A stretch of DNA of 63,776 bases, filler included, from Craspedostauros australis (taxonomy: Eukaryota), in NCBI GenBank assembly GCA_030167865.1. It is 9 parts of 9 records of this genome, joined end to end, with 100 filler letters (N's around TTAATTAATTAA, not from the genome) between each part and the next. Parts side by side here need not be neighbours in the genome. Positions count along the whole stretch, not along the records: positions 37,130 to 49,398 come from JALAGF010004947.1; 8 more parts are not named here. One strand, 5' to 3'. Positions 28,528 to 57,409 of the stretch are shown here, piece by piece (the first letter of the stretch is position 1; each line of letters starts with the position of its first letter). The position numbers were made by a program, and so were the translations under genes. A model generated the notes under the pieces. The model had not been told where the DNA came from. It saw only the letters and a program-made list of their open reading frames with translations, and did not search any database.

Positions 28528-28891
28528 TGTTACGACATAAGGTGCTGCGGAATCGAACCGCTCTGCCTACCAGGCCACCTTAGTCGAAACTGCTACTGTC
28601 TAGATACAAATACCTGTTCTGACACCCTTCCTATTGGTAACTAGACTAGCCCTTCAGCCCCTACCAGCCCTTCCGGCTACGTAGTCAGACCGCTCACACT
28701 CTATGTTTATCCTCCCGCTGTAGGGAGACGGCATTTCGTCCCAGTCGCCAACAAGGCATGATGTTTTCGAGGACTCGAACCCGCGACCTTACCATGTTAC
28801 GACATAAGGTGCTGCGGAATCGAACCGCTCTGCCTACCAGGCCACCTTAGTCGAAACTGCTACTGTCTAGATACAAATACCTGTTCTGACA
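28528..28891 (-). mobile_element. TRIM (miniature non-autonomous LTR retrotransposon), 364 bp
   Basis: Two identical 97-bp TG..CA direct repeats at 28528-28624 and 28795-28891. On the minus strand a TGG-starting PBS directly follows the 5' LTR, and the purine tract AATAGGAAGGG directly precedes the 3' LTR. Flanks are tATATT / cATATT. Confidence 0.92.
28805..28849 (-). ncRNA. Mini-tRNA-like structure inside the TRIM LTR (second copy at 28538-28582)
   Basis: Sequence TAAGGTG-GCCT-GGT-AGGC-AGA-GCGG-TTCGATT-CCGC-AG-CACCTTA forms a 7-bp closing stem, a small hairpin and a T-arm with a perfect B-box (GGTTCGATTCC). Confidence 0.7.
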
Positions 28892-29523
28892 CATATTATG
28901 ATCGTGCGAGTTGCTCCACAACATGACAGTCCGACCTGAAGTACTCCGCGAGTGCACACTCCATGTGCTTCGAGCAACGATGGATGGAGTATCATCGTCG
29001 CTGGTGTCATCACCAGCAATGCTATCGACATCATCGTTCTCCTCGTCAATGAATGATCGCGGACGACACGATGTTGGCGTCACAAGCTCAACGGCCAATA
29101 CGTGGAGACTCACCTTGAGAACAATCGATCGTGAAAAGGCCAGTCGGCACCTGTCACGTGATGTACGAGCATCGTGGACATTGACAACAACCCGCACTGC
29201 GCCACGCTACCGATGCTGCCACTACCAAACCAAGGCCAACGACCTGCAAAAAACGAAACAGCGCAAAGCATCATAGCACAACTCCGCTCATCTTCGTTGC
29301 AAGGTGAGGCGAGGCGAGATGTGACGAAACGAAACACGGCAGAACACGACGAAAACGAAACGAAACGAAACGAAACAGGTGTGACAACACAACACGATGC
29401 ATGATGAGACGGAACATGAGATCATGAGGGAAAGGCGTATTCTGGCAGCTCCATCCAACCATCTCTTCGAAGCTGTGTTCATAAAATGAATGAATCCTCT
29501 GCACAAATCAAACTTCTATCGCA

Positions 29524-32500
29524 TGTTGGTGCAGTAGACTCTGAGCGGAACAAAACCGCCGGAATGGAATCCGGACGGAGCAAGGACGCGAATGCCAACC
29601 ACCGATGCAAATCAACGGCTGGGAGCCATCATCAACATCATGCTGCGCAGCACAAGGCAAACAGCAAGAAGATGGCGAACAAGAACAACAAACAAGCAAA
29701 ACAGGCAAAGCAAACAAAAGCACACAAACTTGTGTAAACTATCTGATTACACCACCCACAACAATCTCACTTCTCTGCTTCTAGTCTATCGCTCCGGTTC
29801 ATTGCCGGGTTGGGACTGTGGCAAGAGTTGTTGTTTCAACATAGTTTACACAAGTTGCCCGCTCTATCACTGCGATGAGCAAAGAAACCAAGCCCAACCC
29901 GACAAAGCCCAAGGGCGGCGTTGGGAAGGCAAACAACCAACCCAGACGTTATCCGACGCCCCGCAAGTCCACGTTCACTGGCGCGTGCGAAGCACTCGAT
30001 GGACGTATCTTTGACTGTTCAGCATCCCGCACTAAGCAGGTGCTCCAGTACACAAAGACTCTTGACGCCATCGTGATCTACGCTGGAACAATGTACAGCC
30101 CGTACGTGCGAAAGGCCCTCGACAACATGGAGCCAACGACCTTCGATCCACCAGTTCGATACGCGAACGACGCGGACGACTACACCAAGGACCTCTGGAG
30201 GGCTCAATACAGGACGTACAGCGCACGAGTGGAGAACTACAACACCAAGATGATGGAGGTCTACGCCCTCATCCTCGGACAGTGTACCGACCTCATGCGC
30301 AGCCGTTTGACTGAGTCAACTGGCTTTGCCGCTGCCAAGTCGGCGCAAGACCCACTCAAGCTCCTTGAAGTCATCAAGAACGTGTCGTTCGATATCAACT
30401 CCAGTGAGAACATCGCCGTCACCATCTACAAGGCAATCAAGGCGTTCTACGCGATCCGCCAGACACCTCATCAGCCACTCCTTGAATACTACGAGACGTT
30501 CCTCTCACAGATCGAAGTCAACAAGAGCATTGATGCCAACCTTACTGGACATGATGGCCTCAACGACATGGCCGTGGAGCTGTCGGCACACGATGAACTG
30601 ACCGATGACAATCGGGCCAACATCCACGCGATCCGACGCGAGCGATTCCTTGCAGTCGCATTCTTGGAGGGCGCCGACCAGGGACGCTACGGCAAGCTCG
30701 TCGAAACCCTTCACAATGACTACCTCCTGGGCAGCAACAACTATCCAAGTGGCGTGACCGATGCATACAAAATGCTTGAGAACTTCCAGAACAACCCCAA
30801 GTACAACTCTGAACCTGGCGGTCCAAGCAACAAGGGCGCGGCCTTTGCCACCGTTAACGGCGCCAACAGCAAACCAGCAGGCACCGACGCCAGCACTCTC
30901 GTCACCGCAGGTGCGCCACACGGAGCCAACGATGAAGGAGATCACAACTACCACAACTACGCGCTCAACCAGTCGCCCAATCCCATCCCGGACACATGGT
31001 GGCTGCTCGACAACCAGTCAACGGTCGACATCTTCGCTGATGGTGGATATCTCTACGACATCCACGAGGTCGATGAATACCTCACTGTTCACTGCAACGC
31101 CGGGACAGCAACCACCAACCTGATGGGCACTCTCCCAGGGTACGGCGCAGTGTGGTATCATCCTGACGGAGTGGCCAACATACTCTCGCTCAGCAACATC
31201 AAGGATCGTTTCCGCATCACGTTCGACAGCGCTGGTGACAACCGGTTCATCATCCACAAGCCGGACGGCACCACCAAGGCCTTCGAAGAGTCCAGCTCTG
31301 GCCTCTACTACCATGACACGACAGTGTACCGCGGATCTGTCCTGGTGACTACTGTAGCGGGTAACAAGTCTAAGTTCTCGTCTATCGATTACTCACGTGC
31401 TCAGCTTGCCCGTTCTGTCCAGCAGCGCATTGGTCGTCCGTCCACTCGCAACTACATCAAGTATGTAAACAACAACATGATCCAGAACTGCCCCGTCACC
31501 AGTAAGGACATTCGCAATGCCGAGCTCATCTTCGGTCCTGATCTCGGATCACTCAAAGGCAAGACGGCTCGCACCACATCACCGCAAGTGCAAGCAGAAA
31601 TCACTGCTTTGCCCTTCTCCATCCTGCGTCAGTATCAGGAAGTCACACTCTCCGTGGACATCATGAAGGTGAACAAGATCCCATTCCTCGTCACCATTGC
31701 AAAGCACATCAAGCTTGGCACTGCTCACAAACTAGACTCCGAGTCTAGCACATCCATCACCAAGAGCATCATGATGATCGTGCGGGTCTACCAACAGCGT
31801 GGATTCAAGGTGGTCATGGTCCTCACCAACAACCAGTTCGAGCCCATCCGCGGCGCACTCGCAGCAGCAGGGACAGCGCTCAACGTCACAGCTCGTGACG
31901 AGCACGTCCCAGCAGTTGAGAGATACATTCGGACTATCAAAGAACGCACCCGCAGCATGTACAACGCGCTGCCATTCAAGCAGTACCCGCCAGGCCTCCT
32001 CATTGAGATGGTATACACCGCTGTGTACTGGCTGAACATGTTCCCGCATCACGACGGGATCTCCAAGCGAATGAGTCCGGCTGAGATTGTGGTTGGACGC
32101 AAGCTTGACTTCCACAAGCACTGCAAGGCGGAATTTGGAACGTACGTGCAGACGCACGAACAGCATGACAACAGCATGCATCCCAGAACCATCGCAGCAC
32201 TTGCACTGCGACCATCTGGAAACGACCAGGGAAGCTACCACTTCTACAGCCTTCTCACCGGAAGGATCCTGCACCGTAACAACTGGACGGAGTTGCCGAT
32301 GCCAGATGCTGTGATTAAACACGTTCACGATCTTGCCAAGCAGAAGAAAGGCCAGAATGACATCGTGTTCACAGATTCACACGACAACATCGTGATGTTG
32401 CCGACCATCGGTGCAACCAAGGACGATCCCAATGACGCAGATTACGATCCAGATGACGAATCTGAGGCCAGCGAAGAGTCGCTTGATGCTGACATCGAGT

Positions 32501-34811
32501 CAGATGAGGATTCCAATGACGATGACTCGGACGGCGATGATGCCGATGATGATGATCCAAACGATGCGGACTACGATCCCGCTGATGAGTCGGAGGCCAG
32601 CGACGATCCGCTGGAGCTCTATGTCGGCGCAGAGGGCGGCAACGATGATGATGATGAAGAGGAGGAGGAGGAGGAGGATGAGGAGGCGGATGACAGTGGC
32701 AGCGATGATGACAGCACCTTTGTCCCGAGTGACGCGGACGAGGACGATCACGACGATGATCACGATCCTGATGCTGCTGGACTTGAGCAAGAGGAAGCCG
32801 GCGCACTCTTGCCCGCCAAAGAGACAATGGACCAGCCAGCCATTGATCCGCTGATCGCACCCATCCATGACGTCGTGCACGAGTTCGTCAACGAAATGCA
32901 AGCTCGGCCAGGTGGTCCCAATGATCCAGGAGTGGACGGCGCTGCCGATGAACAGGAACCGGAGCAGGAAGGACGCCGCACTCGTGGAGGACCGCGACCT
33001 GACTATGCCAGGCTGCACAACGTGGGCACCACCGACACAGGAGCCCATGCAACGATGGTGCAGGTGTCAACCAATGCGGAGGACAAAGTCTGCGATGAGA
33101 AGGTGGGATACACTCTTCTCACCGAGCAGATGAATTGGAAGAGAGGCCTCAAGCTGTTCAACGAACGCGGAGAGGATGCAATCAGCAAGGAGCTGAAGCA
33201 AGTGCATGACATGGAAGGATTTGAGCCAAAGCATTGGCATCAGCTCTCCAAGGACGAGCGTCGCAAGTCGCTGCGATACCTCATGTATCTGAAGGAGAAG
33301 CGCACCGGTCTCATCAAGGGACGGGGGTGTGCGGACGGCCGACCACAGCGGCTGTACATGACCAAGGAGGAAACCAGCTCCCCCACCGTCTCCCTGCTCG
33401 GACTGATGCTCACATGCATTGTCGATGCACACGAAGGGAGAGACGTTGCCACCGCCGACGTCCCCGGAGCATTCCTTCAGACCACTTTTGACAAAGGCGA
33501 GATCGTGCATGTCCTCATTGAAGGACGCATGGCTGAGCTACTTGCCAAGATCGCTCCTGATGTGTACAAGAAATACGTCAACCAGAAGCGAGGACAATCG
33601 TCCATCTACGTGCAGCTGACGAAGGCGCTGTACGGAACCCTCAAGGCCGCACTTCAGTGGTGGAAGGATCTGACGACCACCCTCGTGGAAGATGGATTCA
33701 CCATCAACCCATACGATTGGTGCGTGGCCAACAAGGACGTCAACGGCAGCCAATGTACTGTCGTCTGGCATGTCGACGACCTGAAGATCTCTCACAAGGA
33801 CAGCTCGGTCGTCGACGATGTGCTCCAGATGCTCAGCGAGGCATATGGCAAGCACAGCCCGCTCGCTGTCACCAGAGGCAAGGTCCATGACTATCTTGGC
33901 ATGCAACTGGACTTCTCCAATCCCGATCAGGTGCAGATTGGCATGAGCGAGTACATCAATGGCATTCTCGAAGGAGTACCGGCAAACATGCATGGCAAAG
34001 CCACCACGCCAGCAGCTGAGCATCTGCTCGACATCAACGAGAACAACCCAGTCAAGCTGGATCAGGAGACAGCCGATCTGTTCCACCACACCGTGGCCAA
34101 GCTGCTGTTTCTGTGCAAGCGTGCACGACCAGACCTGCAGACCGCAGTCGCATTCCTGTGCACTCGTGTCAAGGCACCTGACGAGGATGACTACAAGAAG
34201 CTCACCCGCGTTATCAAGTATCTCCGTTCCACCAAGGATATGACTCTCACTCTTGGAGGGTCCTCGCTCGAGAATGTGCAGTGGTGGGTCGACGGATCCT
34301 TTGGCGTGCATGGCGACATGCGCAGCCACACTGGAGCACACATGTCCACCGGGGCCGGCACCATCTACGGCGTGTCGACCAAGCAGAAGCTGAACACCAA
34401 GAGCTCAACGGAAGCCGAGCTCGTTGCCGTGGACGACGTGATGCCGCAAGTGCTCTGGACTCGATACTTCCTCGAGGAGCAAGGCATCAAGGTGGAGCCA
34501 ACCACCATCCATCAGGACAATCAAAGCACCATGTTGCTTGAGAACAACGGCAGGGGCTCAAGCGGCAAGAAGACGCGTCATATCAGTATGCGCTATTTCT
34601 TCGTCAGCGACAGGATCAACAAAGGACAGATCTGTGTCAAATACTGCCCGACCGACGACATGATCGGCGATTTCTTCACCAAGCCAGTGCAGGGATCCAA
34701 GTTCCGCAAGTTCCGTGATCTCATCCTCAACCGCACAGAAGCCAATCCAACCAAGGCCAAGACCTACAAGCAGGCCCTCATTGGATCGAAGGAGTGTGTT
34801 GGTGCAGTAGA
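29524..34811 (+). mobile_element. CoDi-type Ty1/copia LTR retrotransposon, nearly complete (3' LTR cut by contig end)
   Basis: The 5' LTR is 29524-29841 (TGTTGGTGCAGTAGA…TTCAACA). The same start recurs at 34797-34811 after the purine-rich GAAGGAGTG. There is a single gag-pol ORF. Confidence 0.95.
29875..34811 (+). CDS. Copia Gag-Pol polyprotein (Gag, protease, integrase, RT, RNase H)
   Basis: Protease WLLDNQST; integrase VDIM…HVPAVER; RT DVPGAFL, KALYG, HVDD; RNase H VDGSF, SSTEAE, QDNQS, DFFTKP. Domain order is copia-type and the ORF reads into the 3' LTR. Confidence 0.95.
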
Positions 34812-36363
34812 NNNNNNNNNNNNNNNNNNNNNNNNNNNNNNNNNNNNNNNNNNNNTTAATTAATTAANNNNNNNNNNNNNNNNNNNNNNNNNNNNNNNNN
34901 NNNNNNNNNNNTCTCCATCTTCCGTGATTCCGGAGACCTTGACATCGCCCATGTCACCTTACGTCAAACGACCCCAATACCTGCCACTTTCACCCGCGGA
35001 ACGGTGGCAGATCCTGCAAAGGATCGGATCTCCTCCAAACCAAATCAAGAAAGCCATCACNNNNNNNNNNNNNNNNNNNNNNNNNNNNNNNNNNNNNNNN
35101 NNNNNNNNNNNNNNNNNNNNNNNNNNNNNNNNNNNNNNNNNNNNNNNNNNNNNNNNNNNNNNNNNNNNNNNNNNNNNNNNNNNNNNNNNNNNNNNNNNNN
35201 NNNNNNNNNNNNNNNNNNNNNNNNNNNNNNNNNNNNNNNNNNNNNNNNNNNNNNNNNNNNNNNNNNNNNNNNNNNNNNNNNNNNNNNNNNNNNNNNNNNN
35301 NNNCAACCAATCGCCATCGTATACGAACGTGATGAAGCGTCGTCTCGATTCCGACATCGCAAGGCACATCCAGTCCGTGCCATTTTAATAGCATGCCCAT
35401 GCTGTCCTTGCGCAAAGGGAGATCCACTCGGAATCACTCAAAGCAATACACTTGAGTGCAATTGCAAAATGGGATGGGATAGTGTGGTGTGGCAGTAACA
35501 GATAACATCACCTCTCTCTCTCTCTCTCTCTCTGGTGTTGCTTGACGGAGGTCGTCCGAGTACTCAATCTCTTGCGTCGACACCACGATCACAACAGTAA
35601 GAATCAACAACGAATGAGGACAGAATCAAGGTGTTTCGAAAAGTGCGGGACTTGTGCCATCTTGTGCGCACGCATTCTTTTCTCCTTCAACTTTATCACC
35701 GGAATCGTCGCGACCACCAATGACGTAGTTTTGTTCGGTGGAACTCTAATTGCTTGGTGAGCTGATTCGTCAGTTGAGTTCTCTGGACAGAATCTGTGAC
35801 TTTTCGCGTGTGCTTGTGGAGTCATCACACCGTTCGCGTTTGTCTGTCCCATAATTATCATTGTCACTCAGACAAGAAAAGGCATCGCAACAAGATAGCG
35901 AAGATGGAGGTGTCTTGCGCACAATTTGCCTGTCCGAACAACGCATCCGATCAACACCATGACGCATGTCACGAGTTGTGGTACCCACACGTTTTGTTCC
36001 TCCAACCTTCCCACAACCAGTCTGCCTCCAACACACACAGAGAGGGGACTGGAGCGTCTGATCATTCACAAGAGGGCGCGAGTGTCGGCACGGTATGGAA
36101 CTGCGTTTCTGGGAATGCCAAACGCATAGCCACTCCTCAGCCAGGTCATTCACCACGAAGAAAGCAACGACTGCTGTGGCGACATCATCATCCTCCTCCT
36201 CCAAAGAAGACAGTCAGAGCACCATCTCTCCAAGAGCGCGATTATTCGCACGAGTAGATAGTGATAGATAGAGACCCCCGCATCCTCGTACCTCCGTTCA
36301 TGCCTCCATTCGTACCTGCACTCACTGCCAACAAGTCAATCACAAACAAACGAACCCGATGCG

Positions 36364-37129: not shown

Positions 37130-37324
37130 AGAGAGGATCTCGCGTACCGACTCATAGTCGGAGACTGAATCTACGAAACAGATTGAAGCGCCGAGAGCAT
37201 CGGGCAAGAGAACAGCGTACACCGAGAGGATCGGAGTAGCCAAGTAATGAAATAGCAAACAGACGACTATCAACCAACACCATCTTCCACGATCGTAGGT
37301 TACCGTGAGCGGAACTTGCCAACA
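37130..37324. mobile_element. LTR-like terminus (…GGAACTTGCCAACA), same family as 16013-16209
   Basis: Clear diverged repeat of 16013-16209, ending at the same CCAACA. Confidence 0.7.
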
Positions 37325-38318
37325 TGGGTGAATAGGGATCGCCTCTGTTTCGCTTTCTCACATTAGGTTCTCAGGGACGCGTCGACTTGTTCAGATATAT
37401 TGGTTGTCGCGCTCATTCGATTCACTCAGGGCTGGTGTGTTGCCATCGTCATAGATCTCTCGGTTCCCGACCGTTATCAGGACATGGCCGAGTAGGCCAC
37501 TGGATGAGGGTGCTTGGATGTCGCATAAGACAGGAAAGGCCATTGGGCTGTCCGAGTGCAACTGGTCGATTGCTAGGTTGCGGTTTGTCTGGGAGATGCT
37601 ATTGGGGGTTGCGGCAATCATGGGTATCTTTACACTTAATACCATTCCGGTTCCAGTCAGTCCTCATGGGATCTGCGGTAGAACACGGTATCTTTGCAAA
37701 GTCGTACCCCCGATTCCTGACACCGCTGCGCATGTTGCCCACCACGGCTGGGGCTGTGCCAACCGCTACCATGTATTCCGTCAATTCTGTCACCGACTCT
37801 TCGCATGCATCGTCTAACCCACCACAGATTAAAAGATGCCCCACTGTCTCCTCCTGACGGCAGTTGGGGCAGGCTGAGTCCCCTTGCTGCCCTGTCTGCT
37901 TCAATTTGCGGCCCACCGCCATGAACCCAGTGGAAAGCTTCGTCACAAAGTGGGTGTGCTCGCGGGCGGAGGCGGACTTGCGTGCCTTGGAGTACGCTAG
38001 CCAGTCCACCAAGGAGCAATCCAATTCGCTCCAGCCATGCTTCACTCGCCAGTAGTCGAGGATGTCTTCCCTCTGCGCGACTGCTTCCATTGCGGCGATA
38101 TCCATGTGTGAGTATGGAACGCCACTCCAACCGATTCGCCAAATAGAGGCCGAAACGACCCACTTGTCAATCGCCGGCAATGACGATACTGTCTCCCAGT
38201 GCCGCTTGGCTTCCGCGTCCGCACGTACGTTGAGCCTGGCCCAGATGTCGAGAGGGGATGAGGAGTCATCCTGGTGTCCTTTCACCCACCTCCAACTCAG
38301 GGAGCACTGGAGCATGGA

Positions 38319-39940
38319 TGTCAGGAATCGAGGGTGCGACTATGTCGTGTTATACCAGATTGCCGCACCTCCCATAGTACCAAAAATAGACTGACCCATA
38401 TACCAAAGTCGGACACGCTCCCAAGTCTATTGTGGACCTCCTCCTCTGTGTGTCAAGAGTATGACGGACGACGGACAGACTAATGATGTGACATGTTTTG
38501 AGGGTGATGACGAACCGGCAATGGCGAACAATGGATGTGAAAGGGAGACTGGAACACCGAAGTGTTCCAAGCATGAGGGTTGACCGGTTAACCTGAAACA
38601 TCTATGCGAAAACGCTATCACNGTTGAGTCGCTCGGAACCCAGAACATGATTACGTGACTGACAGAGAACCAGCGAAGGAGAACAAAGCGCGGACTGGAA
38701 CAGCATCGAAGAACTGGACTGATCGTGCCAGAACTCCATGTTCTGAGCAAGTGTGATTGTCGGTGAATGTGTGAGAAGAGTGAGTGAACAACACGGAAGA
38801 GTGTACTGAATGAGTGATGGATGCCTGATGAGAAGAGAGTGAATCAAGCATCGGCATGCATGCACCTTAGGAGTGTAGACCGATATCTCAACAGACGAGC
38901 ACGGTGAAATGCACTTGTCATGAGCAATGAAATGGGCATGACAGAGAGATTGCAATGATGATTATGAGGGGCAACTACAGGAGGCCATCAGCATCATCAT
39001 GGGCAAACGAGTCGACAATTTGAGAAATGAGTGTGTTGTTCTCACAGTTCTAAAACGGTACAGTTTTGTCAGGAATCGGGTGTTCTGAAACACCATATTG
39101 CCGCACCTCCCAAGAGTAAGGAGCCGAACGTGGGGATATTCTACATTACCGCAACTCCCACGTTTGATCATTGTGACACAGAAAAATGTGAGCTGCACGT
39201 AACTCGCGGTGGAGAACGCCACGTGCCGAATACGAACCATGCCTGACGTTCATGACTCCAATGCAGGAATGCGAATCACACGTGTATGTCGCAGGGGGCG
39301 GGGATGTTGGAATCGTGACCAACATCACGATACGAGCAACTACGGCCCCCACGTCGCAACCAATGAGATAAGAGTACTGGGAACGAACCTGGGAACGAAC
39401 CTAGGAACGAACCTGGGAACGAACCTGGTATGAGGAACATCCAGGAAGCCGGTGAAGTGATCGGCGAAGAAACAATCAGAAACGATCGGAGTCGACCAGN
39501 NNNNNNNNNNNNNNNNNNNNNNNNNNNNNNNNNNNNNNNNNNNNNNNAGCTCCCAACCAAGGCGTTCCCGCAACGGATGAGAGATCGTGATCTGATCGAA
39601 TGAGCCGATCTGTGTCATGCCTACGACTCGGTGATGTCTAAGGCATCGAAACTATTGGCGGAGGACAACGTGCTAATGTGCACGAATATGGGGTACTCGG
39701 TGGTGCATGCATGTCCATGATGAATCTGCGATGAATGCAAGATGGATGCCTGCTAGACCAACAGAGGGACCCATGGCAATCTCAGGAGGAGATTGGACTT
39801 TGCAATCAAGAGCAATGAAGAGCTCACAGTTCAGAGAAGTAGATTCTAACAAACGATTAGTTCTCTACTATCACACCACCCCGGATTTCCAACACAGTTT
39901 AATAAGCATTAGACTCTACTATAACCCCGGATTTCCAACA
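38319..39940. mobile_element. Solo-LTR-like element A (about 790 bp net) with 6-bp TSD CATGGA
   Basis: Termini are TGTCAGGAATC…GATTTCCAACA. CATGGA occurs at 38313-38318 and 39941-39946. Removal restores the LINE peptide EHVKSMLQC. Confidence 0.88.
39067..39894. mobile_element. Related solo-LTR-like element B nested in A, 6-bp TSD CAGTTT
   Basis: Same termini as A. CAGTTT occurs at 39061-39066 and 39895-39900. It contains (GGGAACGAACCT)x4 and an internal N gap. Confidence 0.85.
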
Positions 39941-41169
39941 CATGGACTTAACATGCTCGATCTCTGAGAGGATGTCCCAGTCTCTATGCGTAGGCCTTGG
40001 AGAGCCATCTCTAGCTCTGTTGAGGGCCTGCTTGCCATCTAACGCGAGGGTGATGGAAGGGATGCTCACCTCTTGCTCCAGAAGAAAAACGTGGATGAGG
40101 GAGGCGAGAATACCCGTCAGTTCGCTTCGATATGAGCTCTGCGTTGGGGCTGTCCCAGGGACCGTGGCCAACACCGAAACCAACTTCTTTGTACGGGTGT
40201 CGTAGATGATGGAGGCGGAGGTGCCCCGGCCATCTTTGTAGGAGCCGTCACTCACTGCCACAAGAGTACCCGCCTCGGACGCCCGCTGAGCGTCTTGGGG
40301 AGTAAGGTCGCCCTCCGTGCTTTGGATGTACTGGAAACACTCTGGCTCGTGGTGCGGGACTTCATCTTGCGTTATTTGAGGGCCGTGAGTGCCATCCTCT
40401 CCGACCGTCATGAAATTGATGTCTCCTCTCGGAAATGGCAACATCGAAACCGCGATGATTGCACGTACGGAGACTCAACGCTCCACTATGTTACTACTAA
40501 TAGAGATGATGCGGATCCAGTTCTAATGGATGCTGCACATCACATGCTCACAATCCTTTTGAAAGTCTCATTTGGATTCGTACAGCTTTAAAGACTAAGA
40601 CATACTCTCACTCTCAAACTCACCAACCTACTGCACTACCACAGATTGATCACCCTTCGGCGTTCAGTAAGTTCACCTCGTTTCCATTATCGTTTTATCA
40701 TCCCACGTGACGTAGTGTTCGTGCCTTGTTACCGAGACTCGGACTGCCTCCACTGGTATCGGTTCGCCGGTGGACATGGGGTTGAACCGTGATAGCCGAG
40801 TACGCTGTTGGCCTTGAGTCCGAGTATAGACGACCGTGGAGGCGGCCGTCACTTCGAAAATCGAATCAGTGAGCGGGTCAAGCCACCATCGCCACGTGTG
40901 TTCGTCAAAATGCCAGGGGCCAAGGGGCGTCGTCAGAGCTCCGTCTGGGTGCGACAGCCGGTCGCAAAACTTCTTCCACTCGTTCCACCAGCTTTCTGGT
41001 AGACTTGAAGGCAGTCGTGGCCAAGACTTTCGCAGCGTGGATGTTTGGTGCCCTGCCATGGCAGCTGCTGTGAGACGGGAGCCATCTGCAGTGGCGATGG
41101 CTGAGACGAACACCGCCCCAAGCAAAAGCCGGCACATGTTCACGCGCCGGAGCCGATGGCCGTGGTACC

Positions 41170-41375
41170 TATCAGCACAAAATCGAATAGTGCTAAGTAC
41201 GTTACTCCTGTAGCCCCCACTATCTATAAATTTCACTTGTGTTCGGTTCAGCAATCGCATCGCCTGTAGCTCAACGGTAGAGCACCAGTAATTCTAACTG
41301 AGGTTCCAGGTTCGAATCCCGGCATGGTACTTTGCTTTTGCTCGCCCCTTGTGATTTTTCAATAGTGCTCTAATA
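41170..41375 (+). mobile_element. 206-bp solo-LTR-like insertion carrying a tRNA-like sequence, 5-bp TSD GTACC
   Basis: GTACC occurs at 41165-41169 and 41376-41380. Termini TATCAG…CTAATA form an imperfect inverted pair. Removal restores the LINE peptide GHGYHGHRL. Confidence 0.85.
41260..41330 (+). tRNA. tRNA-like/pseudo-tRNA (nominal anticodon TTC, but non-canonical loop and mismatched acceptor stem)
   Basis: D-arm TA-GCTC-AACGGTA-GAGC, anticodon arm CAGT/ACTG with a 7-nt loop, T-arm CCAGG-TTCGAAT-CCCGG. T-runs lie downstream and TATAAAT lies about 35 nt upstream. Confidence 0.65.
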
Positions 41376-42935
41376 GTACCCGTGGCCCAGAGCTAACTCC
41401 GTCAGCGCTCTGTCGCCTTGCCTCTGTGGTATCATCGCCAGGGTGTTTTCCTGGATGTGGAACCTGGCCTCCTGTATGTCGCCCCACAGGTTGGAGATCC
41501 AACAGGGAGTGAGAGCATCTCGGAGGAGATGATGGGGGTGGTCAAAAAGGGAGCCTGACACACCCACTTCGTCTTTGAGGGCCTCTATCGAGTGCTCGAT
41601 CATCTTCCCTGTCGGGGTTGCCGCATGGACCTCCAGGAACATGGCCTGCACCTGTCGTACAACTTGGCGCCTCCAGGGATTCGGAATCCCAAGGCCTCCT
41701 TCGGCGACTGGTGCATAGAGAACTGTGCGGGGAAAAGTGCGCATCAGCTTCATCTTGGGGAGCGCGGCTTGCAAAGCTGGGGCTGTGATATAGTTCCATT
41801 GGTTGGGTGTTAGTTGCACCGCAGGCATCATGTACTCAATGGACTTCATAAACTGTAGTACCAGAGCAGTTTTGGCCTTGCTGGGGGACACTTGGGCCAC
41901 CCTCAGCTTTTCAGCAAACAGCTCTGCCTTCCAGTGAAGGGTGCTGACTTGGACATCGTTGCGACCGTCGAGAGAGATAGCCACGCCCAGCGTTTCGACT
42001 GGGTCGGTGTGACGCTTCCTTGAAATAGTGGCTCTGTCTTTGCCACTGCCTTGAATGTCCACGATGCCGTCTACGTGTGAGTCCTCTGCCCACCATTGGC
42101 CTGACTCGAAGGAGAAGTGAACTGCCCACCACGCAGATTTGGCGGGCACGATGGCGCCGCCCGTGGCTGCGAGTAAGCCGCTCCATTCCTCGATCATGGC
42201 TTGGAACTTCTGGAATCCCTCTTCCGGAGATTCTCTGGCCTTGGAGACACGGACGAGGTCTGTGTCGTCGACGAATGCGGACCCCAATACTCTCATCGGG
42301 GAGAGGCTGAGAGGCGCTCGAAGCACCGACTCATGCCCCTGAGCTTGCATTGCCTTGAACATTACGGAGCTAAAGGCTGCGGTCATACTCAGAGTAGCAT
42401 TCGCTACATGGGGACCAAAACCTGCACGCCGAACTCTAGTCAACATACAACATCGCATCCAGCTCCAATAACAGCATGAACTGACATGGTATTACACATG
42501 CAACGCATGCTACACACCAACCCAATAGTACACATATCTTGTGATATACTCTACTCCTGACTTTCTGCACTACCATTTGCTCTTCAGCTGTATGATCGAC
42601 CACTGGCAACAATGCACTCAACGGCCGGACAGTCGCAGACGTGCATCTTTGCAGTGTGCAAACGTGCATTGACGCCACAAATTGAAATTTTGTGGGTGAG
42701 CAGAGGTGCGCGACGTTGCGCACACAATTCGCAACGCGCTTCCAACAAGTCTGCGCAACTGCAAGGCACGGGAATTCCGTTGAAACTGACACTCGATCGC
42801 ACTTGACCAAGACGACCACTCCACAAACACAATCACGATTCGACTACAGCGACTAATATGCTCGACCAGTAGAAGAAAATATAACGTCTATAACCGTTAT
42901 TGTTTTAAAATCCGAACACCAGGCTAATCGCAAAT

Positions 42936-43146
42936 AAACGTTGAAACTAATGACGAAACGTTGAAACTAATGACGAAACGTTGAAACTAATGACGAAACG
43001 TTGAAACTAATGACGAAACGTTGAAACTAATGAAGAACCGTTGAAACTAATGAAGAAACGTTGAAACTAATGAAGAAACGTTGAAACTATCGGCGAGGTG
43101 TTGAAACTATCGGCGAGGTGTTGAAACTAATAGAGAGCCGTTGAAA
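42936..43146. repeat. 20-bp tandem array (AAACGTTGAAACTAATGACG and variants), about 11 units
   Basis: GTTGAAA recurs exactly every 20 nt from 42940 to 43140. Confidence 0.95.
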
Positions 43147-43173
43147 GCAGTCACGATTCATTCGTGAAGCCTT

Positions 43174-45266
43174 GTGACACTCCAGATGAAAAATGACGCA
43201 CGTAATTTGATCGAGGCGATGTCATCACACAACAGGGCAACGGCGGAAAAGCCTCCATTTCTGTTCGTGTTTTGTTGGCGCTCTTGCCATCCACTATCCA
43301 TTATCCATCAGTCATCATACAATCGAACAAGACAGGAAGCCCAACAAGCTGGGCAACGAGCACCTAAAGAAGGCATTGAGGCGGAGGCAGCGAGGGAAGC
43401 CTTGTCGCAACCATCGCGAGCAGCAGAGGATGGCAGCGAGGGAGGAACCACCACAACAACCATGAGGAGAAGGGGACGGCAGCGAGGCGGAGGCAGCGCG
43501 AGCAGCAGCACTGCAAGAATCGCCAGCAGCAGGGGGCAGCAGCGAGGAGGAGACAGCGAGAGCACCACCACCGCAACCGTTGCAAGCAGCAGAGGAAGGC
43601 AACGAGGCAGAGGCAGCACGAGCAGCAGCACCACAAGCATTGCAAGCAGCAGGGGACCGCGGCGAGGCGGAGGCAGCGAGAGCACCACCACCGCAAGTAT
43701 CGCAAGCAGCAAGAGCAGCAACACCGCAACAATCGCAAGCAGCAGGGGACAGCGGCGAGCCGGAGGCAGCAAGAGCACCACCACCGCGACCATTGCAAGC
43801 AGCAGAGGGCTGCAGCAAGGCGGAGGCGGCGAGAGCACCACCACTGCGAGCATTGCAAGCAGCAGACAGCTGCCGCGAGGCAGAGGCAGCGAGAGCACCA
43901 CCACCGCAAGTATTGCAAGCAGCGAGAGCAGCAACACCGCAACAATTGCAAGCAGCAGGGGACCGCGGCGAGCCGGAGGCGGCAAGAGCACCACCACCGC
44001 GACCATCGCAAGCAGCAGAGGACCGCGGCAAGGCGGAGGCGGTGAGAGCAGCAGCACCGCAAGCAGCAGACGGCTGCAGCGAGGCAGAGGCAGCGAGAGG
44101 ACCACCACCGCAAGTATCGCAAGCAGCGAGAGCACCACCACTGCGACCATCGCAAGCAGCAGACAGCTGCCGCGAGGCAGAGGCAGCGAGAACACGACCA
44201 CTGCAACCACCGCAAGCACCAGAGAAAGGCAGCACGATGGAGGCAGCGAGGGCAGCAGCACGGCAACCCAGAAATCAACCGAAACTGATTTCTTGGGGCA
44301 CCATGAAGTGCTCACACTTGGCCTCAAGTATGCCGGTTTCCGTCAGGAAAAGATGGCAGATCGCACGATGCAGACTCGCTTTGCTGCAACGTACGGACTG
44401 TGCCCTGAAAGCTTTGCTTCCCTCTTCGTGGATCTCTTCAACAGCCAAACGGCACAATTCAAACGTCCGCGTCCGCGCGATCTCTTTGTTGTCTTGAACT
44501 GGCTGAAAACATACTGCACAGAGCATGTGATGGCTGGCCGATGGAATTTGGATGAGAAGACTATCCGTGGTCTCATCTGGTCGTACTTGCCAGCTATTCA
44601 AGCCCTGCTGCCACAAAAGGCAAGTGTGACAAAGGGAATCTTGTGCTGGAATGCTTCTTTCATTTCCTTCTCTCGAACGAACTCTCTCACATGTTTCTCT
44701 TCTTTCTTTTCATTCTGGTACACCATCAATAGGTCATCTGGCCGCCAAACACAACAGAACTTGCAGGAGACGATAAACACTTCATCATCACTGTTGATGG
44801 TGTTCACATCAGGATCCAAGAACCACGGATGGACCCAGGAACCAAGTGGTACTCTCACAAGTCTCACTCAGCTGGTTTGACGTATGAGCTCGGGATATCC
44901 CTGGCAGAGAGCAAGCTGGTGTGGATCAATGGGCCATTTCCAGCTTCCACTTCAGATCTGGTGATGTATCGCAAGCCAGATGGTCTCAAATCCAAGATCC
45001 CACCGAATGCCCTGGTAATTGCTGATGGGGGGTACAACAATGAGCCTACAATCAGTGCCCCAAATCCGTGTGATTCTGCTGCTGTGAGGAAGTTCAAGAA
45101 TCGAGCAAGAGCACGGCATGAGAGCTTTAACGGAAGAATCAAGAACTTCCAAGCACTTGCGAATGGGTACCGCAATCAACTGAGCAAGCATCAGTGCCTA
45201 TTTGAGGCCTGCTGTGTTTTGATTCAGTACGAACTCGACCATGGCCATCCAATATTTGACATCTAA
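43174..45266 (+). CDS. ISL2EU/PIF-Harbinger-type DDE transposase with low-complexity repetitive N-terminus; GC-AG intron 44620-44732; start uncertain
   Basis: HTH-like region WLKTY.TE…AGRW. After splicing: ITVDGVH…EP, WYSHK, YELGI, WINGP, ADGGY and RARHESFNGRIKNF (D-D-E). Confidence 0.88.
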
Positions 45267-45338
45267 ACAACATGGGAGTCGAGTAGTAGGAACTAGTTGA
45301 TTACTTATAGAATACTTCAATGTTTGCAACAGATTGCT

Positions 45339-47227
45339 TCATGCCTGGGAATAGAAGAGTTCGAGTGCCTCGTCAACACTCTCAGAATCAGTGTCACTGC
45401 TTGGAACACGTGTGTTGACTGCAAGATCAATCGATGCAAGATCAATTGATGCAAGCTTGCTGTCTTCTTCATGCTTGTCAGCCTTCATCTTCTTCGGGAG
45501 ATTGTTGTGGCGCAGCACGGGATGAGAGCGCTTGAGGTGCTGCCCTTCGTCGCCCATGATTGTGTCTGTTGGGTTGCTCGAAGCTGCAGGGGCACAGCAA
45601 GCAACAGTAGCAGGCGCCACTGTCGCAATTTTAACTGCTGCTGGTTCTTCCGCAGCGGGCTTCAGAGCATCTGCTGGCGCAAATGGCAATTGCAAGTCCA
45701 ATGCATCGATGCCTTCCACAGTTTCAGCCGGATTCGCAGGAGCTGGATGGATGCCATTGTCATTGCTATAGACTGGGTCCGGACAAATTGGATAGATGCC
45801 ATCATCATTGCTATGGACTGGGTCCGGACGACCTGGATGGATGACACCGCCATGGCTGAAGGTTTGGTTTGGCGTAGGGTCTTCTGGGCTCTCTGCGTAG
45901 CTTGAGACGTCGCTCATGCTCATGTTGTCATTTGCATCATGCCTGCCACTACCGGCGACGGTAAGCGATGCTGTGCGAATCATGACAGTTTGGGTGCGTG
46001 CACGTCAATGAAGAAAGAGCAGTTGGTGTTTGTTTGTGAGTAATCAGTCTAATTTGATGTTACTACAATGGTAGAGCAAAGCACAGGTCAATCAGGTCGA
46101 ATCAAATGCTCGTTTTACGCACCGGCTTTGCCCATCATTGCGAAGAAATCGTCTTCACCCTCGCTGTGGTCTTCCTCGATGTCCACCTTTCCATCGAATC
46201 CCTTGATCGCAACTTTCCAGTACACCACATTCATTGGAATTTGATATTCCATGTGGCTCTTGTGGTGGATGTGATGCTTTGCGATCGGTCGGTACGTTTT
46301 CGCGAGGCGCTCTGGCTCGTTTCCAAAGTAGTTGGTGGAGAGCACCATGCCATCAGGGCAGATGAAGTAGGTGTACTTGGTCTCTGCACCTCTGTTGAGC
46401 TCTCTGTTGACGAGCTTGTTGAAGGCATTCTTTTCCCTCCCAATGTTGGGATCATGGTTCCCCTTCTTTGTGAGAAACATTGTTTGTGTGGATCTCTCGA
46501 GCATCACGGCTGGGACGCTTGGCTCCTCAATCTTGATAGAGATCCCATCATCGCACAGGGATGCCTTCACCTTCGTGACATCATCCTTGTCCAGAATGAA
46601 CTTGCGGATGACAAGGCAGTCCAGGGAGCGGCCATCCAGCAGCACGTCATTGACACGATAGATGATCGTGTTGTCGGCATTCTGGAAAGGGCGGTCGAGG
46701 TCTATCTTGTACTCCATCCCAGCATGATCTTCGTTGGTGAAGTTGCTGGTGTCATCGCTGTTCTTCGCCATCTTGTTCTTGTATGAGCTGAAGTTGATCC
46801 TTCGTCTTTGTGGTGGTGAGGTTGTTGTCGATACTGTTGATATTGGTGCGGTTGGCACGGAAGTGGGAGGTGTTGATGCGACTGTTGGCGTGTCGATCGT
46901 CTCCTTGGCTGGTTTGTGATCTCCTCTGTCATTCTCCAGCTCAAGGGCCTCTCTGTGTGTTTGCTGTAGTGCCAAAAGGCCAGCTCGGTCCAGCCGTCTT
47001 CTGAGGTAGTACATTCGTTGGCGGCTGGCTTCGCGCAGATCAGAATTGCGCTTGCCATGGATGTGCTGATTGTCGTCACAGTGAGCTTTGAATGTGTCCA
47101 AGCGACTTGCTCCGAGCAAAAAATCCAACACAGAGAGATCGACTTCACGAGTCACCGACTTCTTATTTGAACGGCTGGGAGTTTTTTGGCGGGCGGACCG
47201 CGGCGCGGGAGAAGTAATCTGTTCCAT
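45339..47227 (-). CDS. Hypothetical protein, probably transposon-borne; predicted intron 46122-45971
   Basis: Two long ORFs join in frame via G|GTGCGT…CACAG|. The gene is convergent with the transposase, whose stop lies 73 nt from its own. Confidence 0.55.
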
Positions 47228-47937
47228 CGTGTGCTGGAGTGTGGCGCAGAGTGTGGTGCCGAATGCGTTCTCTTGATTGGCTCCTGAATTTCTCTGCTGG
47301 TGGGTTTTGTGATGGTTCGGCAGAGTCCAATTTTGGCTGCCATTCAAACACCGACACCACCCACAGAAGAGCACGCAATGACACGAGGAAGAGAGGAAGA
47401 GATTTCTCTGTGTGCTGATGATGATCACTTCACACAAGACCATACCTACACAAACAATGACAGTGCCAAGTATAATACGAATGTGGTCCCACCAACTTGG
47501 AGAAAGCAAGGCCAACTGTAATTCGAACAACCGGATGAGCAACACAAGCCAGGAGATTGAAATGCAACAGCACCATGTGCAAGGACATGGTCAGCAACGG
47601 ACACACACGGAAACAGCACCATGGTCATGTGCAAATGCGGGTACAGGATAAACGGTATGTTGCACGGAAAGGTACCAGATGAAGCAACAATCTTGATACC
47701 AGTACCTTGGCAGCAACAGCAGAAGGTGCACCCAGGGCACCATTGCAACAACGCCAGCAAACTACATCGAATGGCATGGTGCGCATCCATGGTATCCAAA
47801 TTGGTGACATCGAGTGTTTTCAATGCAAGTCCATTGACACCGCAGCAAGACCATCATCACATACATCGTCTCTTCTTGGCACAGCCACCATCGCAACCCT
47901 CATCGTGAAAGCCTGGTGATCATCATCGCAAGACAGG

Positions 47938-48414
47938 ATGCCCATGAAATGGGCCGACGCAAAAGCAGTGCTGGAGAAGGACCTGAAGATGGGAGCCATC
48001 ACACCAGAGATGACTCCCAAGCAGATATACGAAGGGAGGGTTGAGTTTGGCAGCATCAAGTACACCAACTTTCGGAACAATCTCAATCGACTAAGAAAGA
48101 AATGGAGGAAGTACGAAGAAGAAGCAAACAAAGCTGATGAAGCACTTGCAGCATTTGAACGGATGCACATCTCAACACCTCGTGCATCAAAGCTGCGATG
48201 GGATGGATCGGAAGCACAGCGAATGCTGAAGCAAGACATGCAAGATGATGCTGTGAAATGCCTCTCATCAAAGCAGGTCCACAACCTGCGAAATTGCAAT
48301 CAGGTCTTTCCGATCGATCAGTTTCGAAAGCACTTTCACGCAGCAAAGAGATCGAAGTATGAATCACTCTACTGGCAGCAGCGAAAGAACAACAGGAAGA
48401 CGTCCAAGAAGTGA
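47938..48414 (+). CDS. Small basic protein with duplicated W…[KQ]D…F..FR motif (putative transposon accessory DNA-binding protein)
   Basis: Internal repeat: WADAKAVLEKDL…EF….Y..FR and WDGSEAQRMLKQDM…F….FRKH. Confidence 0.55.
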   Translation: MPMKWADAKAVLEKDLKMGAITPEMTPKQIYEGRVEFGSIKYTNFRNNLNRLRKKWRKYEEEANKADEALAAFERMHISTPRASKLRWDGSEAQRMLKQDMQDDAVKCLSSKQVHNLRNCNQVFPIDQFRKHFHAAKRSKYESLYWQQRKNNRKTSKK

Positions 48415-50511
48415 GGCCATTGCGCTCACGATCACTACCACACCCGGAGAAAATTAACAATAGTAGGAACTCAACACTCTGCATGTAATTAACTATCAAT
48501 CATCTTCAATGTATTTGGTTTCAGATATGATTGCTGGTTCTTGTTGTGTGTGTGCTGTGGTGTCCGTCTCTGTGCAGATCTGGGCGCGCGATGCACCACA
48601 CTCACTTGGCAAACCGATAGCACGAGTTGTACAGTTTTTAGATCTCCAGCGTGGGATTAGTCGTGTTGCGTAGCCCAGTCTGGAGCAAAATTGCAATCCA
48701 TCCCAAAAACGCTTATGATGCTATATCGCAACACCACATCATCTACAATTAAAACTAAGTGTACCATGTGAACAACTCGTTGGTTGCGAATAAGAATATT
48801 GGACTTAAATTGAAATTGACTTCAAATTTAACATCATTTTGTTGCCAACGTGCGATTGTGTGTGGCGCAAAATTCTGGATGGGACCATGCTGCCGTTGCT
48901 TTGCCATCCAAGACGATGCCCATGAATGTCTCATTTCGTTCACTTGCACACCTCATTGTCTCCATATACCCCATTTGTATCCATCCCTGGCAAGCATGCA
49001 CCAGTGTATCTCCCTTCAATCCGCATTGTCAGCTCACTGCTGAAAACCAACACCTTGACAATGAGGGTCGATCTTCACACAGCCGCTTCATCCGACCATA
49101 CCTCCTGTTCACAACCATCTATGTTCCTCCTCCCCCAAGCATCATACCTCGATCCCTGATTCATTGAGGGCATGTTGATGCATCCTCCAATGCCTCAGGA
49201 TGTATCTCTGCATTTCAATTCATCCCGATGCTGGTACCATGGCCAGCTTTCTTTGTCTCGGAAATGCGACTGCCACATTTTCTTGATTTCCACCTCTCCC
49301 ACTCAATCGAACCAATCCCCACTTCTCCACCCCATTCCCGACTTGATGATGAAGACATCTTATATGGGTCGTTTGGCAATGTGATGGATGTTCACATGNN
49401 NNNNNNNNNNNNNNNNNNNNNNNNNNNNNNNNNNNNNNNNNNTTAATTAATTAANNNNNNNNNNNNNNNNNNNNNNNNNNNNNNNNNNNNNNNNNNNNAA
49501 GAAGCACATCACTCCAATGCAGCGAGGAGATGGACATGATTCGCGAGGAACTCCGGCTTGCCAAACTCAAGCGCAACTACCACGATCTGCGCCTTCAGGA
49601 ACTCAATCTGAAGCTTCAGGTTGCTGAGGCGAAGAAAGAAATGGAGGAAGCGCATCACAATCGCTCGGAATGAAGGCATTGGGTGTCCAACTTTCACATG
49701 CGTGGATGGATGGAGAGGTGGAGCAATGGGGAAATCGGAGAAGGGGTGTGTATGCAGGATCCGATCGGTGGTGCCACTTTCAGGTGGGGTGGACATTCTG
49801 AAGAATATTTGAAGAATGTAATACAATAGAACAGATCACAGTTTGCACGGGCATGCGACCTTCTCTCTCCCATTAAGACTTCTGGATATGATCGTGCACT
49901 AGCTTACGAATGGTGTTTCGTGAATGCTTGTCGAGTTTGCGATAGTCGGAGCAGGTAGATACCACCCTCTCCACAAACGCAGATCGCAGAATACACGTAC
50001 ACGCCATAGGATGGTGCGAGTGAATGGCGCAATTCAAACGACGAACAAAGAAACAGAAACCTTGACCACTCTCAACGCAGTTTTGGTCCGTTGAGTCGAA
50101 CCTCCTTTTCCGTCCACGCAATGCGCGTGTACGCACGAAGGAGGCAAGTTCGCGAAATTGATCTGCATCAAATCATCAGAAACCAATGCGGATTCAAATC
50201 TCCATCAATGAGAAGTGCCATGCACATCGGCACCAAGTCACTTCAAGACCGCTGCTCGATGTCCATCGTCAATCATAACGGACACAGCAACAGCAGCAGA
50301 AGAAGCAACAGAGAGGCATCACACACCAATCGCCGCGTTGATCTTCCAACTTCACCTGCCCAGAAGACCGACGTTCAAACTTGTTTTCTTCTGTTTCGTC
50401 TTCATCGCTCGCAACTGCATCCACGAAACAAGAGCCAGTGCCATCGTCGAACATAGAACAACGTATGCCATCAAAGAAGACACTCAAACAGTACAAATCC
50501 ACTCCTTCACG

Positions 50512-52467: not shown

Positions 52468-54407
52468 ACAATAATAATAACTCAGTGATTACATCAGAGA
52501 TGTGCCATAAGGCTTTACCCTCGCCGTCGCCTGCCCCGTAGGACCTAGCTTCGAGCGAGCTGTCGAGATTATACTCAATCCAGGCCTAGCCACGTTGCCA
52601 TGGCCTGTCGTTCCGCTTGCATGGAGCGAGACCGTCGTCGGGCTTTGACTGCGGCCTGTACTGCCGTCATCGAATGCACCCATTGTCGCATTTGGGTTTC
52701 GGTGCCGTACTCGATGTTGCGTCCGTCTCGTAAGAGCTGCAGTTCTGACGCTGTCATGTCTTGGCTGGCACTCTGGGTTATCCGGCGCACCTGCCTGCGC
52801 AATTCCTGCGTAGTTGGGTGCTGATCCCCGTCGTGCACTTTCGCATTTCTCGCCGTCCATATCGTCCAAGGTACTTTCCAGATCCACCGGATTACCTCTC
52901 CTGCCCATGCCCTAGCGTCCGGGAAAAAGCACTCGTGCGTCGTCATCCACTGCCTCTGCGTCCGTACCCAATCCTTGTGTAGGAAGCCTGCTAGCAGAGG
53001 ATACCAACCTATCGCGCTCTGAGGTCCATCCGTTCTCAACTTCCGTCTCCACCGCACTAGCCCCACTCGCATGTTCTGGACCAGTCGCGGGGCCGTACCA
53101 ATTCTCACCATGGTAGCGATCAGATCGGCCGTGGAGTCCTGCCAAGCTTCCTGGTGTTCCGGGCACTGCAGCACGTGTTCCGTCGTTTCCTCGTGGGGAC
53201 AGAATTGGCACTTCGCCGTGGGTCGCTGTCCCATCTGATGCAATTTCTTGTTGACACCGATGAAACCCGAGGACCACTTGGACATGAAGGTGACCATCGT
53301 CTTGCTCTTTTTGGCCGACCTCGTTGACCTGTACGTATGCCAGTCCACCGCTGCGGCCTGTTCGTCCTCCCACTGAAACTTCGATGACCAATAAGTGGCA
53401 GCTTCCGCCGCCTGTAGTATCTCGTTCAATGCGTGCTTGTCCACATGCGAGGCATCCGTGTCTCGGAGACGTAAACGCCACCTGTCAGTGCTCGTGCTCC
53501 ATCTTTTCACCATTCGGCGTTGTGCTGTCTCAACCCAAAACCGCTTAGCATTGTCGTCGACAATCACATTGAGCCGCTCCAGGGTGGTCAGCGTCTTCCC
53601 AGTATCATCCTGGTGACCTTTGACCCATTCCCATTTTAGGGTGGCCCGAATCTGGCGCCGAAGCTTCCGAATCTCGGTGAGCACGTCCCAGTCTCGTTGG
53701 TGTGGGCGGAGCTCGTCCTCCTGCGCTCGTTGCATGGCCTGTTTACCGTCCAAGGCCAGCGTAATCACGCAGTCCTCGTCCAGCCCTGGCATCCTGGATA
53801 TGACTGCCAGAGACGCCCATACACCTGCCAGTTCGCTTCTGTAGGCGCTTTGTACTTCTCTGGGTCCTGGAACAAAGGTGTTGCAGCTCATGCTGGCGTT
53901 GGACTCGGCGTCAAACAGTATCGATGACGAAGTCCCTCGGAAATCCTTGAACGAACCGTCACTCACCACCAGTAGCTTTCCACGTCTGGCCGCCCTTACT
54001 GCGTCATGAGGCTGTAGGTCCCCCTGCAGCTGCTCGACCGGGTTGTAGCCTTCCGAGGGCTCGTCGCTCGGCTCAGCCAGGCCCACGTGGCCATCCCACT
54101 CGATTCCCGTTTCAATCATCGTGACAGACACGCGCTTGGCCCCCGTTGGGAGCACCTCGACGTGTCCAGCCCTAGTGAATCGCTGTCGACGGGTCCGGCT
54201 GGTGAGACGCTGCCTGTATCGCTGGATTGGACGAGTAGCCATGTCAAAGATCACATCTGTGTACGGTAGCTTCCACCACCGCCAGGTCCTATCATCGCTG
54301 TGCCACCTGCCCAGGGGTTGGTGGAGCGTCAAGCCTCGGAAGCACATGAATTTGCACCACCGCTGCCATTCCTTCCACCAGCCGCTCGGGAGGCGGTCAG
54401 GTTGGCT
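52468..54407 (-). mobile_element. Non-LTR retrotransposon 3' part (RNase H + CCHC, Ambal-like), ORF stop at 52575, short (TTA)n tail
   Basis: Motifs VSDGSFK, SAYRSELAG, WVKGHQD and CQFC..EETTEHVLQC. It is homologous to the 37380-42435 element. Confidence 0.9.
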
Positions 54408-56911: not shown

Positions 56912-57409
56912 ACTGTCAAGTAGGTAACCCATTGGTCGTACCAAGCTCACACACTACTCACACATGACTCACACATGACTCACACATGGCTCACAAATGG
57001 CTCACACACAGCTCACATACAGCTCACACATAATGGTTCACGCTGTGGATAATCCAAAATGCAAGGCACAGCCATTTCCATCACCCACCACATAATTCAC
57101 ACTGAGATGTGTGCAGTCACAGCCCATGCACACACTCCAACCACCTTGCACACTGACAACATGGTTGACAATGGTCGACACACAGTTCTGCAAGCTATAT
57201 ACGACTCACTCTAACCCTATGCATTGTACAGGAATGGCCATCACTCAACCCACAACAACAACTGGCCAATCTCGACCCCCAGCACATGCACACACTCCAA
57301 ACACTGCACACACTGTCCAAATGGTTGACACATGGTTGGAACATAGCTCACTCATGATGTTGCAAGCCAAACACAACTCATACACCCATAATGCAATAAA
57401 CATCAATTG

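Follow-up and report, generated by a model that had tools for sequence, protein, structure and literature searches.

What kind of mobile element leaves a 206-base unit, with a tRNA-like sequence in its middle and a short duplication on either side, inside the reading frame of another retrotransposon? The locus that raises this question lies in the genome of Craspedostauros australis (GenBank assembly GCA_030167865.1). The window, meaning the whole stretch of DNA that was analysed, is 63,776 nucleotides long including filler and joins 9 parts from 9 records end to end; positions 37,130 to 49,398, from JALAGF010004947.1, contain the locus. A first-pass annotation made from the sequence alone had described a solo-LTR-like insert carrying a complete tRNA-like Pol III unit, and had proposed that this tRNA was the primer for the element's own reverse transcription.

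Genomic setting

The window is diatom nuclear DNA, and contains a silicon transporter fragment at 17316-18086 (Pfam Silic_transp, E 2.7e-84) and a U2 snRNA. Retroelements in it include two Copia polyproteins (RVT_2), at 29845-34863 on the plus strand and 61973-63409 on the minus strand; two LINE fragments, one of them surrounding the insert and the second elsewhere in the window; and a TRIM-like element at 28528-28892, which is 365 bases long, has two 98-base repeats identical to each other and is accompanied by a duplication of 5 bases, ATATT. No LTRs were found for the Copia element at 29845-34863, its surroundings having N-runs on both sides and yielding a 15-base match only. The Copia elements, together with the TRIM-like element and its ATATT duplication, indicate that integrase-type insertions with 5-base duplications occur in this genome.

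A precise insertion in an older retrotransposon

The insert, its duplicated target and the element that received it are placed as follows.

37770-42491, minus strand: host element, a 5'-truncated non-LTR retrotransposon (from homologues, Pfam and tblastn)
41165-41169, no strand: left copy of the target-site duplication (TSD), GTACC (read from sequence; host frame restored on excision)
41170-41375, plus strand: insert, a mobile unit of 206 bases (read from sequence, from homologues and from contigs of another run)
41376-41380, no strand: right copy of the TSD, GTACC (read from sequence)

The host element is LINE-like and older than the insert. Its span runs from the FVDD motif of the RT, via an RNase H-like part, as far as the C-terminal region; the minus-strand frame at 41370-42491 bears the FVDD motif, after which come another conserved part and the RNase H-like part, the insert being located between RT and RNase H. 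Proteins homologous to it are approximately 1900 residues long and have Pfam RVT_1, some of them also having the endonuclease family PF03372, and one comes from a named diatom, Cylindrotheca closterium. Homologue residues ~845-1700 map by tblastn to 42380-37770, and because only this portion of its relatives is represented, the host element is a 5'-truncated copy.

The insertion of the 206-base unit is real and precise. Excision of 211 bases (the insert plus one GTACC) fuses two minus-strand frames into 535 open codons. Both halves of the restored frame are matched by 41 of 55 homologous retrotransposon proteins, with a gap between the halves of 1-3 residues in 40 of the 41 and of exactly 1 residue, the codon split by the insert, in 24. 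Since excision rejoins the host frame and homologues are nearly gapless at the junction, the GTACC pair is no chance repeat, and the 206-bp extent and 5-bp TSD given in the first-pass annotation are borne out. The duplication is 5 bases on both sides of the single copy examined, as expected of the fixed short TSD of Helenus-type elements discussed below. That the two GTACC copies are identical and the surrounding host frame is still open suggests that this small insertion is apparently young.

Anatomy of the insert

Outside its tRNA-like core, the insert contains four features.

41170-41175, plus strand: TATCAG, the 5' terminal hexamer, which in inverted orientation agrees at 5 of 6 bases with the 3' terminal hexamer CTAATA at 41370-41375
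41186-41194 and again 41361-41369, plus strand: subterminal direct 9-mer AATAGTGCT (window self-comparison)
41225-41231, plus strand: TATAAAT, a TATA-like box at -35 to -29 relative to tRNA-like position 1 (read from sequence; putative function)
41336-41359, plus strand: T-runs TTTT (41336-41339) and TTTTT (41355-41359), Pol III terminator-like (read from sequence; putative function)

Arranged in order, these give 90 bases with the TATA-like box, then the tRNA-like core, the T-runs and a short tail, a layout resembling U3-R-U5. LTRs as a rule end in TG...CA. The insert instead has the non-canonical ends TATCAG...CTAATA that had been noted earlier, which counts against reading it as an LTR. Hexamer agreement at 5 of 6 bases or better is found at 308 of 61425 window positions (0.5% of 206-base spans). 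No longer inverted repeat is significant: a local alignment between the 5' 40 bases and the reverse-complemented 3' 40 bases was equalled in 1132 of 2000 shuffles. The repeat score of the direct 9-mer, AATAGTGCT, was equalled in 11 of 2000.

These termini bear on one alternative, that the insert is a MITE that took up a tRNA gene together with flanking sequence, its mobility being due to a transposase making 5-base duplications. The short terminal inverted repeat and the subterminal 9-mers would suit such an element, as would the discrete ends common to copies in another run (see below), but we consider it improbable: a MITE would be expected to have terminal inverted repeats at least about 10 bases long and here only 5 of 6 terminal bases agree, the 40-base end alignment is no better than that of shuffled sequence, and the two halves of the insert differ in depth in the other run. 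To our knowledge neither MuDR nor PiggyBac is a 5-base-duplication family, and the 5-base TSD fits them poorly. These are the DNA transposon superfamilies given for a diatom in the available part of PMC5859163, which does report MITEs in a diatom, a point in favour of this explanation.

A decayed tRNA-derived core

The core of the insert is of tRNA origin, and the following segments of it were delineated.

41260-41329, plus strand: decayed tRNA-derived core (Rfam RF00005 match at 41265-41324)
41267-41277, plus strand: A-box-like TAGCTCAACGG (read from sequence)
41309-41319, plus strand: B box GGTTCGAATCC (read from sequence and Rfam match)

The Rfam tRNA model RF00005 matches at 29.9 bits (gathering score 29), over model positions 6-65 only. 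The D arm is intact, the anticodon stem and the T stem have one mismatch each, and the acceptor stem forms 4 of 7 pairs; the anticodon loop, AATTCTA at 41290-41296, has A at position 33. The designation of TAGCTCAACGG as A-box-like follows the familiar A-box consensus. Both boxes are intact, as had been claimed, and the motifs TRGCY..YGG and GGTTC named in the available part of PMC10886601 are found in the insert.

Detection of the core as a gene fails beyond this match. ARAGORN called no tRNA in the whole window at default settings and none in the insert region down to 80% thresholds (its calls at a 70% threshold were implausible, fell on both strands and were disregarded). The minimum-energy fold is not a cloverleaf (z +0.90), and 168 of 200 shuffles fold as well. 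The 'cloverleaf' of the first-pass annotation is thus marginal, having the Rfam score just above threshold on its side and ARAGORN and the fold against it, while the remainder of that description holds for the core: the loop lacks U33 and the acceptor stem is mismatched. A functional tRNA gene would have a paired acceptor stem, U33 and a call by a detector; this core has none of these, and is a decayed relic. Its orientation on the plus strand is antisense to the host retrotransposon.

A short, non-coding, dispersed sequence with a tRNA-derived core and intact A and B boxes resembles a SINE2, and the insert could be a SINE-like retroposon propagated through target-primed reverse transcription by the reverse transcriptase of a LINE, in which case 206 bases would represent an unusual long form with a 90-base leader. 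Two LINE fragments are present within the window, and putative SINEs have been annotated in a diatom (available part of PMC5859163), both of which would be compatible with this origin. We nonetheless regard it as unlikely, if a serious contender. In SINE2 elements the tRNA-derived head is at the 5' end; here the tRNA-like part is central, with its first base at 91 of 206, so transcription driven by an internal Pol III promoter would miss the 90 bases in front of it. The insert's 3' end, ...CAATAGTGCTCTAATA, has no A-rich or simple-repeat tail, in agreement with the earlier description of a central tRNA without poly-A. Comparison with both LINE fragments and the rest of the window gave no match of 12 bases or more, and hence no LINE-like 3' end among the LINE sequences compared; inverted hexamers at the termini are likewise unexpected of a SINE. 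A dimeric SINE, with a second tRNA-like unit in the 5' 90 bases, was considered and rejected, as an Rfam search at E<=10 over 40000-42500 returned a single tRNA match.

Copies in another public run

The window contains no second copy of the insert, and an exact-pattern search found 0 matches in viral, metagenome and prokaryote genome contigs. Two chance frames through the insert were compared with protein collections: the first, of 32 aa, had one marginal match (E 6.9e-4, nothing aligned) among 1.84 billion representatives, and the second, of 41 aa, had none in a 5.8-billion protein set, including near or longer lengths.

Copies do occur in contigs of another public run, X1 (word share 0.06; its kind, RNA or DNA, is a guess only), which was the one sequencing run listed as sharing words with the insert, and no RNA holder was among the listed results. 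Twelve of 13 X1 contigs are 95-99% like the insert and the remaining one 90-95%. They span 41170-41376 alone, leaving the surrounding sequence (3.2 kb compared, including the host LINE flanks) uncovered, and three of them continue into unlike sequence, at 41170, 41371 and 41376, with flanks that are all different. Because X1 contigs cover the insert alone and diverge at its ends, the insert is a discrete multi-copy unit, found with the same ends in other contexts elsewhere.

These copies are unevenly represented along their length. Depth is 37 over 41170-41289 (the 5' 120 bases, on one contig) versus approximately 327 summed over 41290-41376, a break at one fixed point that coincides with the first base of the anticodon loop and leaves the 3' part about nine times deeper. 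This imbalance indicates that most X1 copies are without a recognisable version of the upstream 120 bases, A box included. A 3' segment of 86 bases at roughly ninefold depth, whose 3' end adjoins several contexts, is what 5'-truncated copies would produce, and is more easily explained in SINE fashion than by solo LTRs. A break fixed at 41290 rather than graded is, however, not what a SINE would be expected to give.

The X1 flanks also contain motifs of the kind that border LTRs. Sequence adjoining the 5' end of the insert closes in a purine run, GTAGGGGAG, that is PPT-like, and one 3' flank has a PBS-like TGGTAGGATGC 7 bases beyond the point of divergence; the two contigs have similar depths, 37 and 31. 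These motifs, noticed post hoc, weakly favour an LTR. Against this, the PBS-like flank is on a contig whose divergence sets in 4 bases short of the insert's 3' end, and the contig with the exact 3' end of the insert, CTAATA, runs into a flank without TGG, so that exact end and PBS-like flank are on different contigs. In the window itself, the three 30-base X1 flank strings are absent at up to 3 mismatches, and the PBS-like 13-mer has 2 matches at 2 mismatches, against 1.7 expected.

The same flank is the nearest approach to the primer role proposed in the first-pass annotation, by which a tRNA-like RNA borne on the LTR would be made by Pol III, gain CCA and start reverse transcription of the element itself from a matching PBS, TGG(G)TACCATGCC. 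That PBS is absent from both X1 3' flanks, the nearest sequence being TGGTAGGATGC, with 9 of 12 bases in common with the predicted TGGTACCATGCC; in the window the predicted PBS does no better than chance, having 9 matches at up to 2 mismatches versus 5.1 expected, one of them the end of the tRNA-like part itself. Five of the 9 agreeing bases are the start TGGTA, which is expected generally of PBSs for initiator-tRNA-type primers, and the copy to which this flank is attached differs in its 3' end. With 4 of 7 acceptor pairs, a fold no better than shuffles and no ARAGORN call, the core would moreover make a poor tRNA. The closest published precedent, Helenus, offers no encouragement: Kojima 2024 looked for complementarity between the LTR tRNA-like part and the PBS in that group and found none (available part of PMC10886601). 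We therefore regard this part of the earlier proposal as unsupported and very improbable.

Relation to known Pol III-derived LTRs

A relic of a Pol III small-RNA gene inside an LTR is already in print, in Cassandra, Helenus and Ajax, and the insert may be a further example of this principle. Cassandra TRIMs and Ajax share with it the location of such a relic within the LTR, but theirs derives from 5S rRNA rather than tRNA, and they belong to plants and nemerteans (PMC10886601, available part).

Helenus is closer. According to the available part of PMC10886601, Helenus elements are TRIMs with tRNA-derived sequence in their LTRs, boxes A and B being conserved and a working tRNA unlikely; their LTRs range from 120 to 323 bases; TSDs are 5 bases in fungi and plants and 4 in animals; they often survive as solo LTRs between duplications; and fungal members are thought to be mobilised by Copia, whose duplication length is also 5 bases. 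The insert corresponds in being a short unit with a tRNA-derived core, both boxes and improbable decoding, in its 5-base TSD, as in fungal and plant Helenus, and in its 206 bases, within the 120-323 range; the frequency of solo LTRs flanked by duplications and the likely Copia partnership extend the parallel. It differs in being one unit, in which no internal part, PBS or PPT is seen, and in its TA...TA ends. Its core, moreover, is preceded by a TATA-like box and followed directly by T-runs, as a gene with flanks would be and not as a SINE head, and its host is a diatom, absent from Table 1 of that source, where the Helenus hosts are fungi, animals and one plant and no stramenopile is given.

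TA...TA ends are themselves a known non-canonical type, reported (in the available part of PMC9804982) for Copia elements of plants whose LTRs are short (mean 229 bases). These resemble the insert in their 5' TA and 3' TA, which still form a short inverted repeat, and in the shortness of their LTRs, but are autonomous elements and have no tRNA-like insert. In literature on diatom SINEs and TRIMs, and on Helenus/TRIMp3 since 2024, we found no diatom LTR or TRIM described as bearing a tRNA; a preprint of 2025 on diatom TEs mentions neither SINE nor tRNA.

Most likely, then, the insert derives from a short retroelement of the non-autonomous type, specifically as a solo LTR of a Helenus-type TRIM ('TRIMp3'), an assignment that we hold tentatively, at slightly less than an even chance, and that refers to a single copy in a window with no paired copy, PBS or PPT. 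It is based on the 5-base TSD, the inverted ends, the central promoter module with its TATA-like box, the size and the Copia-rich setting. To this extent the solo-LTR-like Pol III unit of the first-pass annotation is reasonable, given the Helenus precedent (PMC10886601, available part), while the paired copy, PBS and PPT that would complete it are not seen directly. The conclusion must also be tempered by the T-runs just past the tRNA-like core, which would halt Pol III inside a 5' LTR.

Under the solo-LTR assignment, the history of the locus could be reconstructed as follows. An element with two LTRs, both containing a tRNA-derived module, would have been integrated by a Copia-type integrase supplied in trans, landing in the reading frame of the older LINE-like element and duplicating GTACC. 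Later recombination between the LTRs would have removed the internal part and kept one LTR between intact duplications. The tRNA relic would be neither a decoding tRNA nor the element's primer, but may serve, or have served, as a promoter: TFIIIC, TFIIIB and Pol III would be recruited through the A and B boxes and the TATA-like box lying 29-35 bases upstream, and the resulting short Pol III transcript would terminate at the T-runs. The first-pass annotation had likewise named a TATA box and T-run terminators; the roles of the box and T-runs, like the identity as an LTR, the Copia partner and the recombination step, are suggested by analogy and position.

Implications for diatom genomes

If the insert is a solo LTR, the Helenus/TRIMp3 class would extend to diatoms, and thus to stramenopiles, with a variant in which TA...TA ends accompany a full gene-like Pol III unit of TATA box, tRNA relic and terminator. 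If it is a SINE, having the tRNA part in the centre would be unusual, and SINEs are barely described in these organisms. The very improbable self-priming proposal, if true, would mean a retroelement with its primer gene in its LTR. Units with a tRNA relic scatter Pol III/TFIIIC binding sites and false tRNA predictions across a genome, and so would have a bearing on diatom tRNA gene counts and repeat annotation. The insert is useful as a marker for a census of its family.

TRIM-like element

28523-28897: TRIM-like element, including flanking ATATT copies

This element is probably the 'TRIM' with which the first-pass annotation compared the 206-base mobile unit with a tRNA relic that lies inside the host retrotransposon. 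Its 98-base direct repeats (28528-28625 and 28795-28892) are 100% identical and separated by 169 bases, with ATATT present at each side. On the minus strand, the segment between the repeats opens with TGGTAAGG immediately after one repeat and closes with a purine-rich AATAGGAAGG before the other. Both repeats contain a T-arm-like GCGGTTCGATTCCGC, which scores only 10.7 bits against a tmRNA model, and no Rfam tRNA match was found in the repeats.

Host retrotransposon, its surroundings and other retroelement fragments

38400-39960: extra DNA (~1.6 kb) within the host retrotransposon
42893-43172: tandem array of about 14 copies of a 20-base unit, outside the host retrotransposon and adjoining its truncated 5' end
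43168-44880: 570-codon open frame, next after the array
52630-54377 (-): second fragment of the host's LINE-like family, about 25% identity to homologues
61973-63409 (-): second Copia polyprotein fragment, with RVT_2 and a retroviral SH3-like domain

Within the host retrotransposon, a 5'-truncated LINE-like element, the extra DNA separates the parts matching residues ~1476 and ~1500 of the homologous retrotransposon proteins; it looks like a second insertion or a rearrangement. An N-run lies in it, as does a tandem repeat of the 12-base unit GGAACGAACCTG at about 39379-39430. The 570-codon frame consists of 60- and 93-base repeats in which Ser, Thr, Arg and Gly are abundant.

Genes, N-runs and other repeats

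5911-6100 (+): gene for U2 spliceosomal RNA, full length, scoring 114.6 bits in Rfam
17316-18086 (+): silicon transporter fragment (Pfam Silic_transp, E 2.7e-84)
57100-61300: repeat region of about 4 kb, with satellite-like repeats in units of 185-213 bases and short tandem repeats rich in CA/CCCT

The silicon transporter fragment, interrupted by the N-run at 18038, identifies the window as diatom DNA. A pattern of 44 N, 12 bases and 44 N occurs at 8 sites (13163, 18038, 27546, 34812, 37030, 49399, 54408 and 61699), several of which adjoin repeats or transposon frames, so that the N-runs may conceal element ends such as Copia LTRs. Also adjoining N-runs are the 89-base arms of an inverted repeat (13263-13351 and 15395-15483; 99% complementary, with 2043 bases between), which may represent a DNA transposon or a foldback element. 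The repeat region at 57100-61300 shows strong GC skew.
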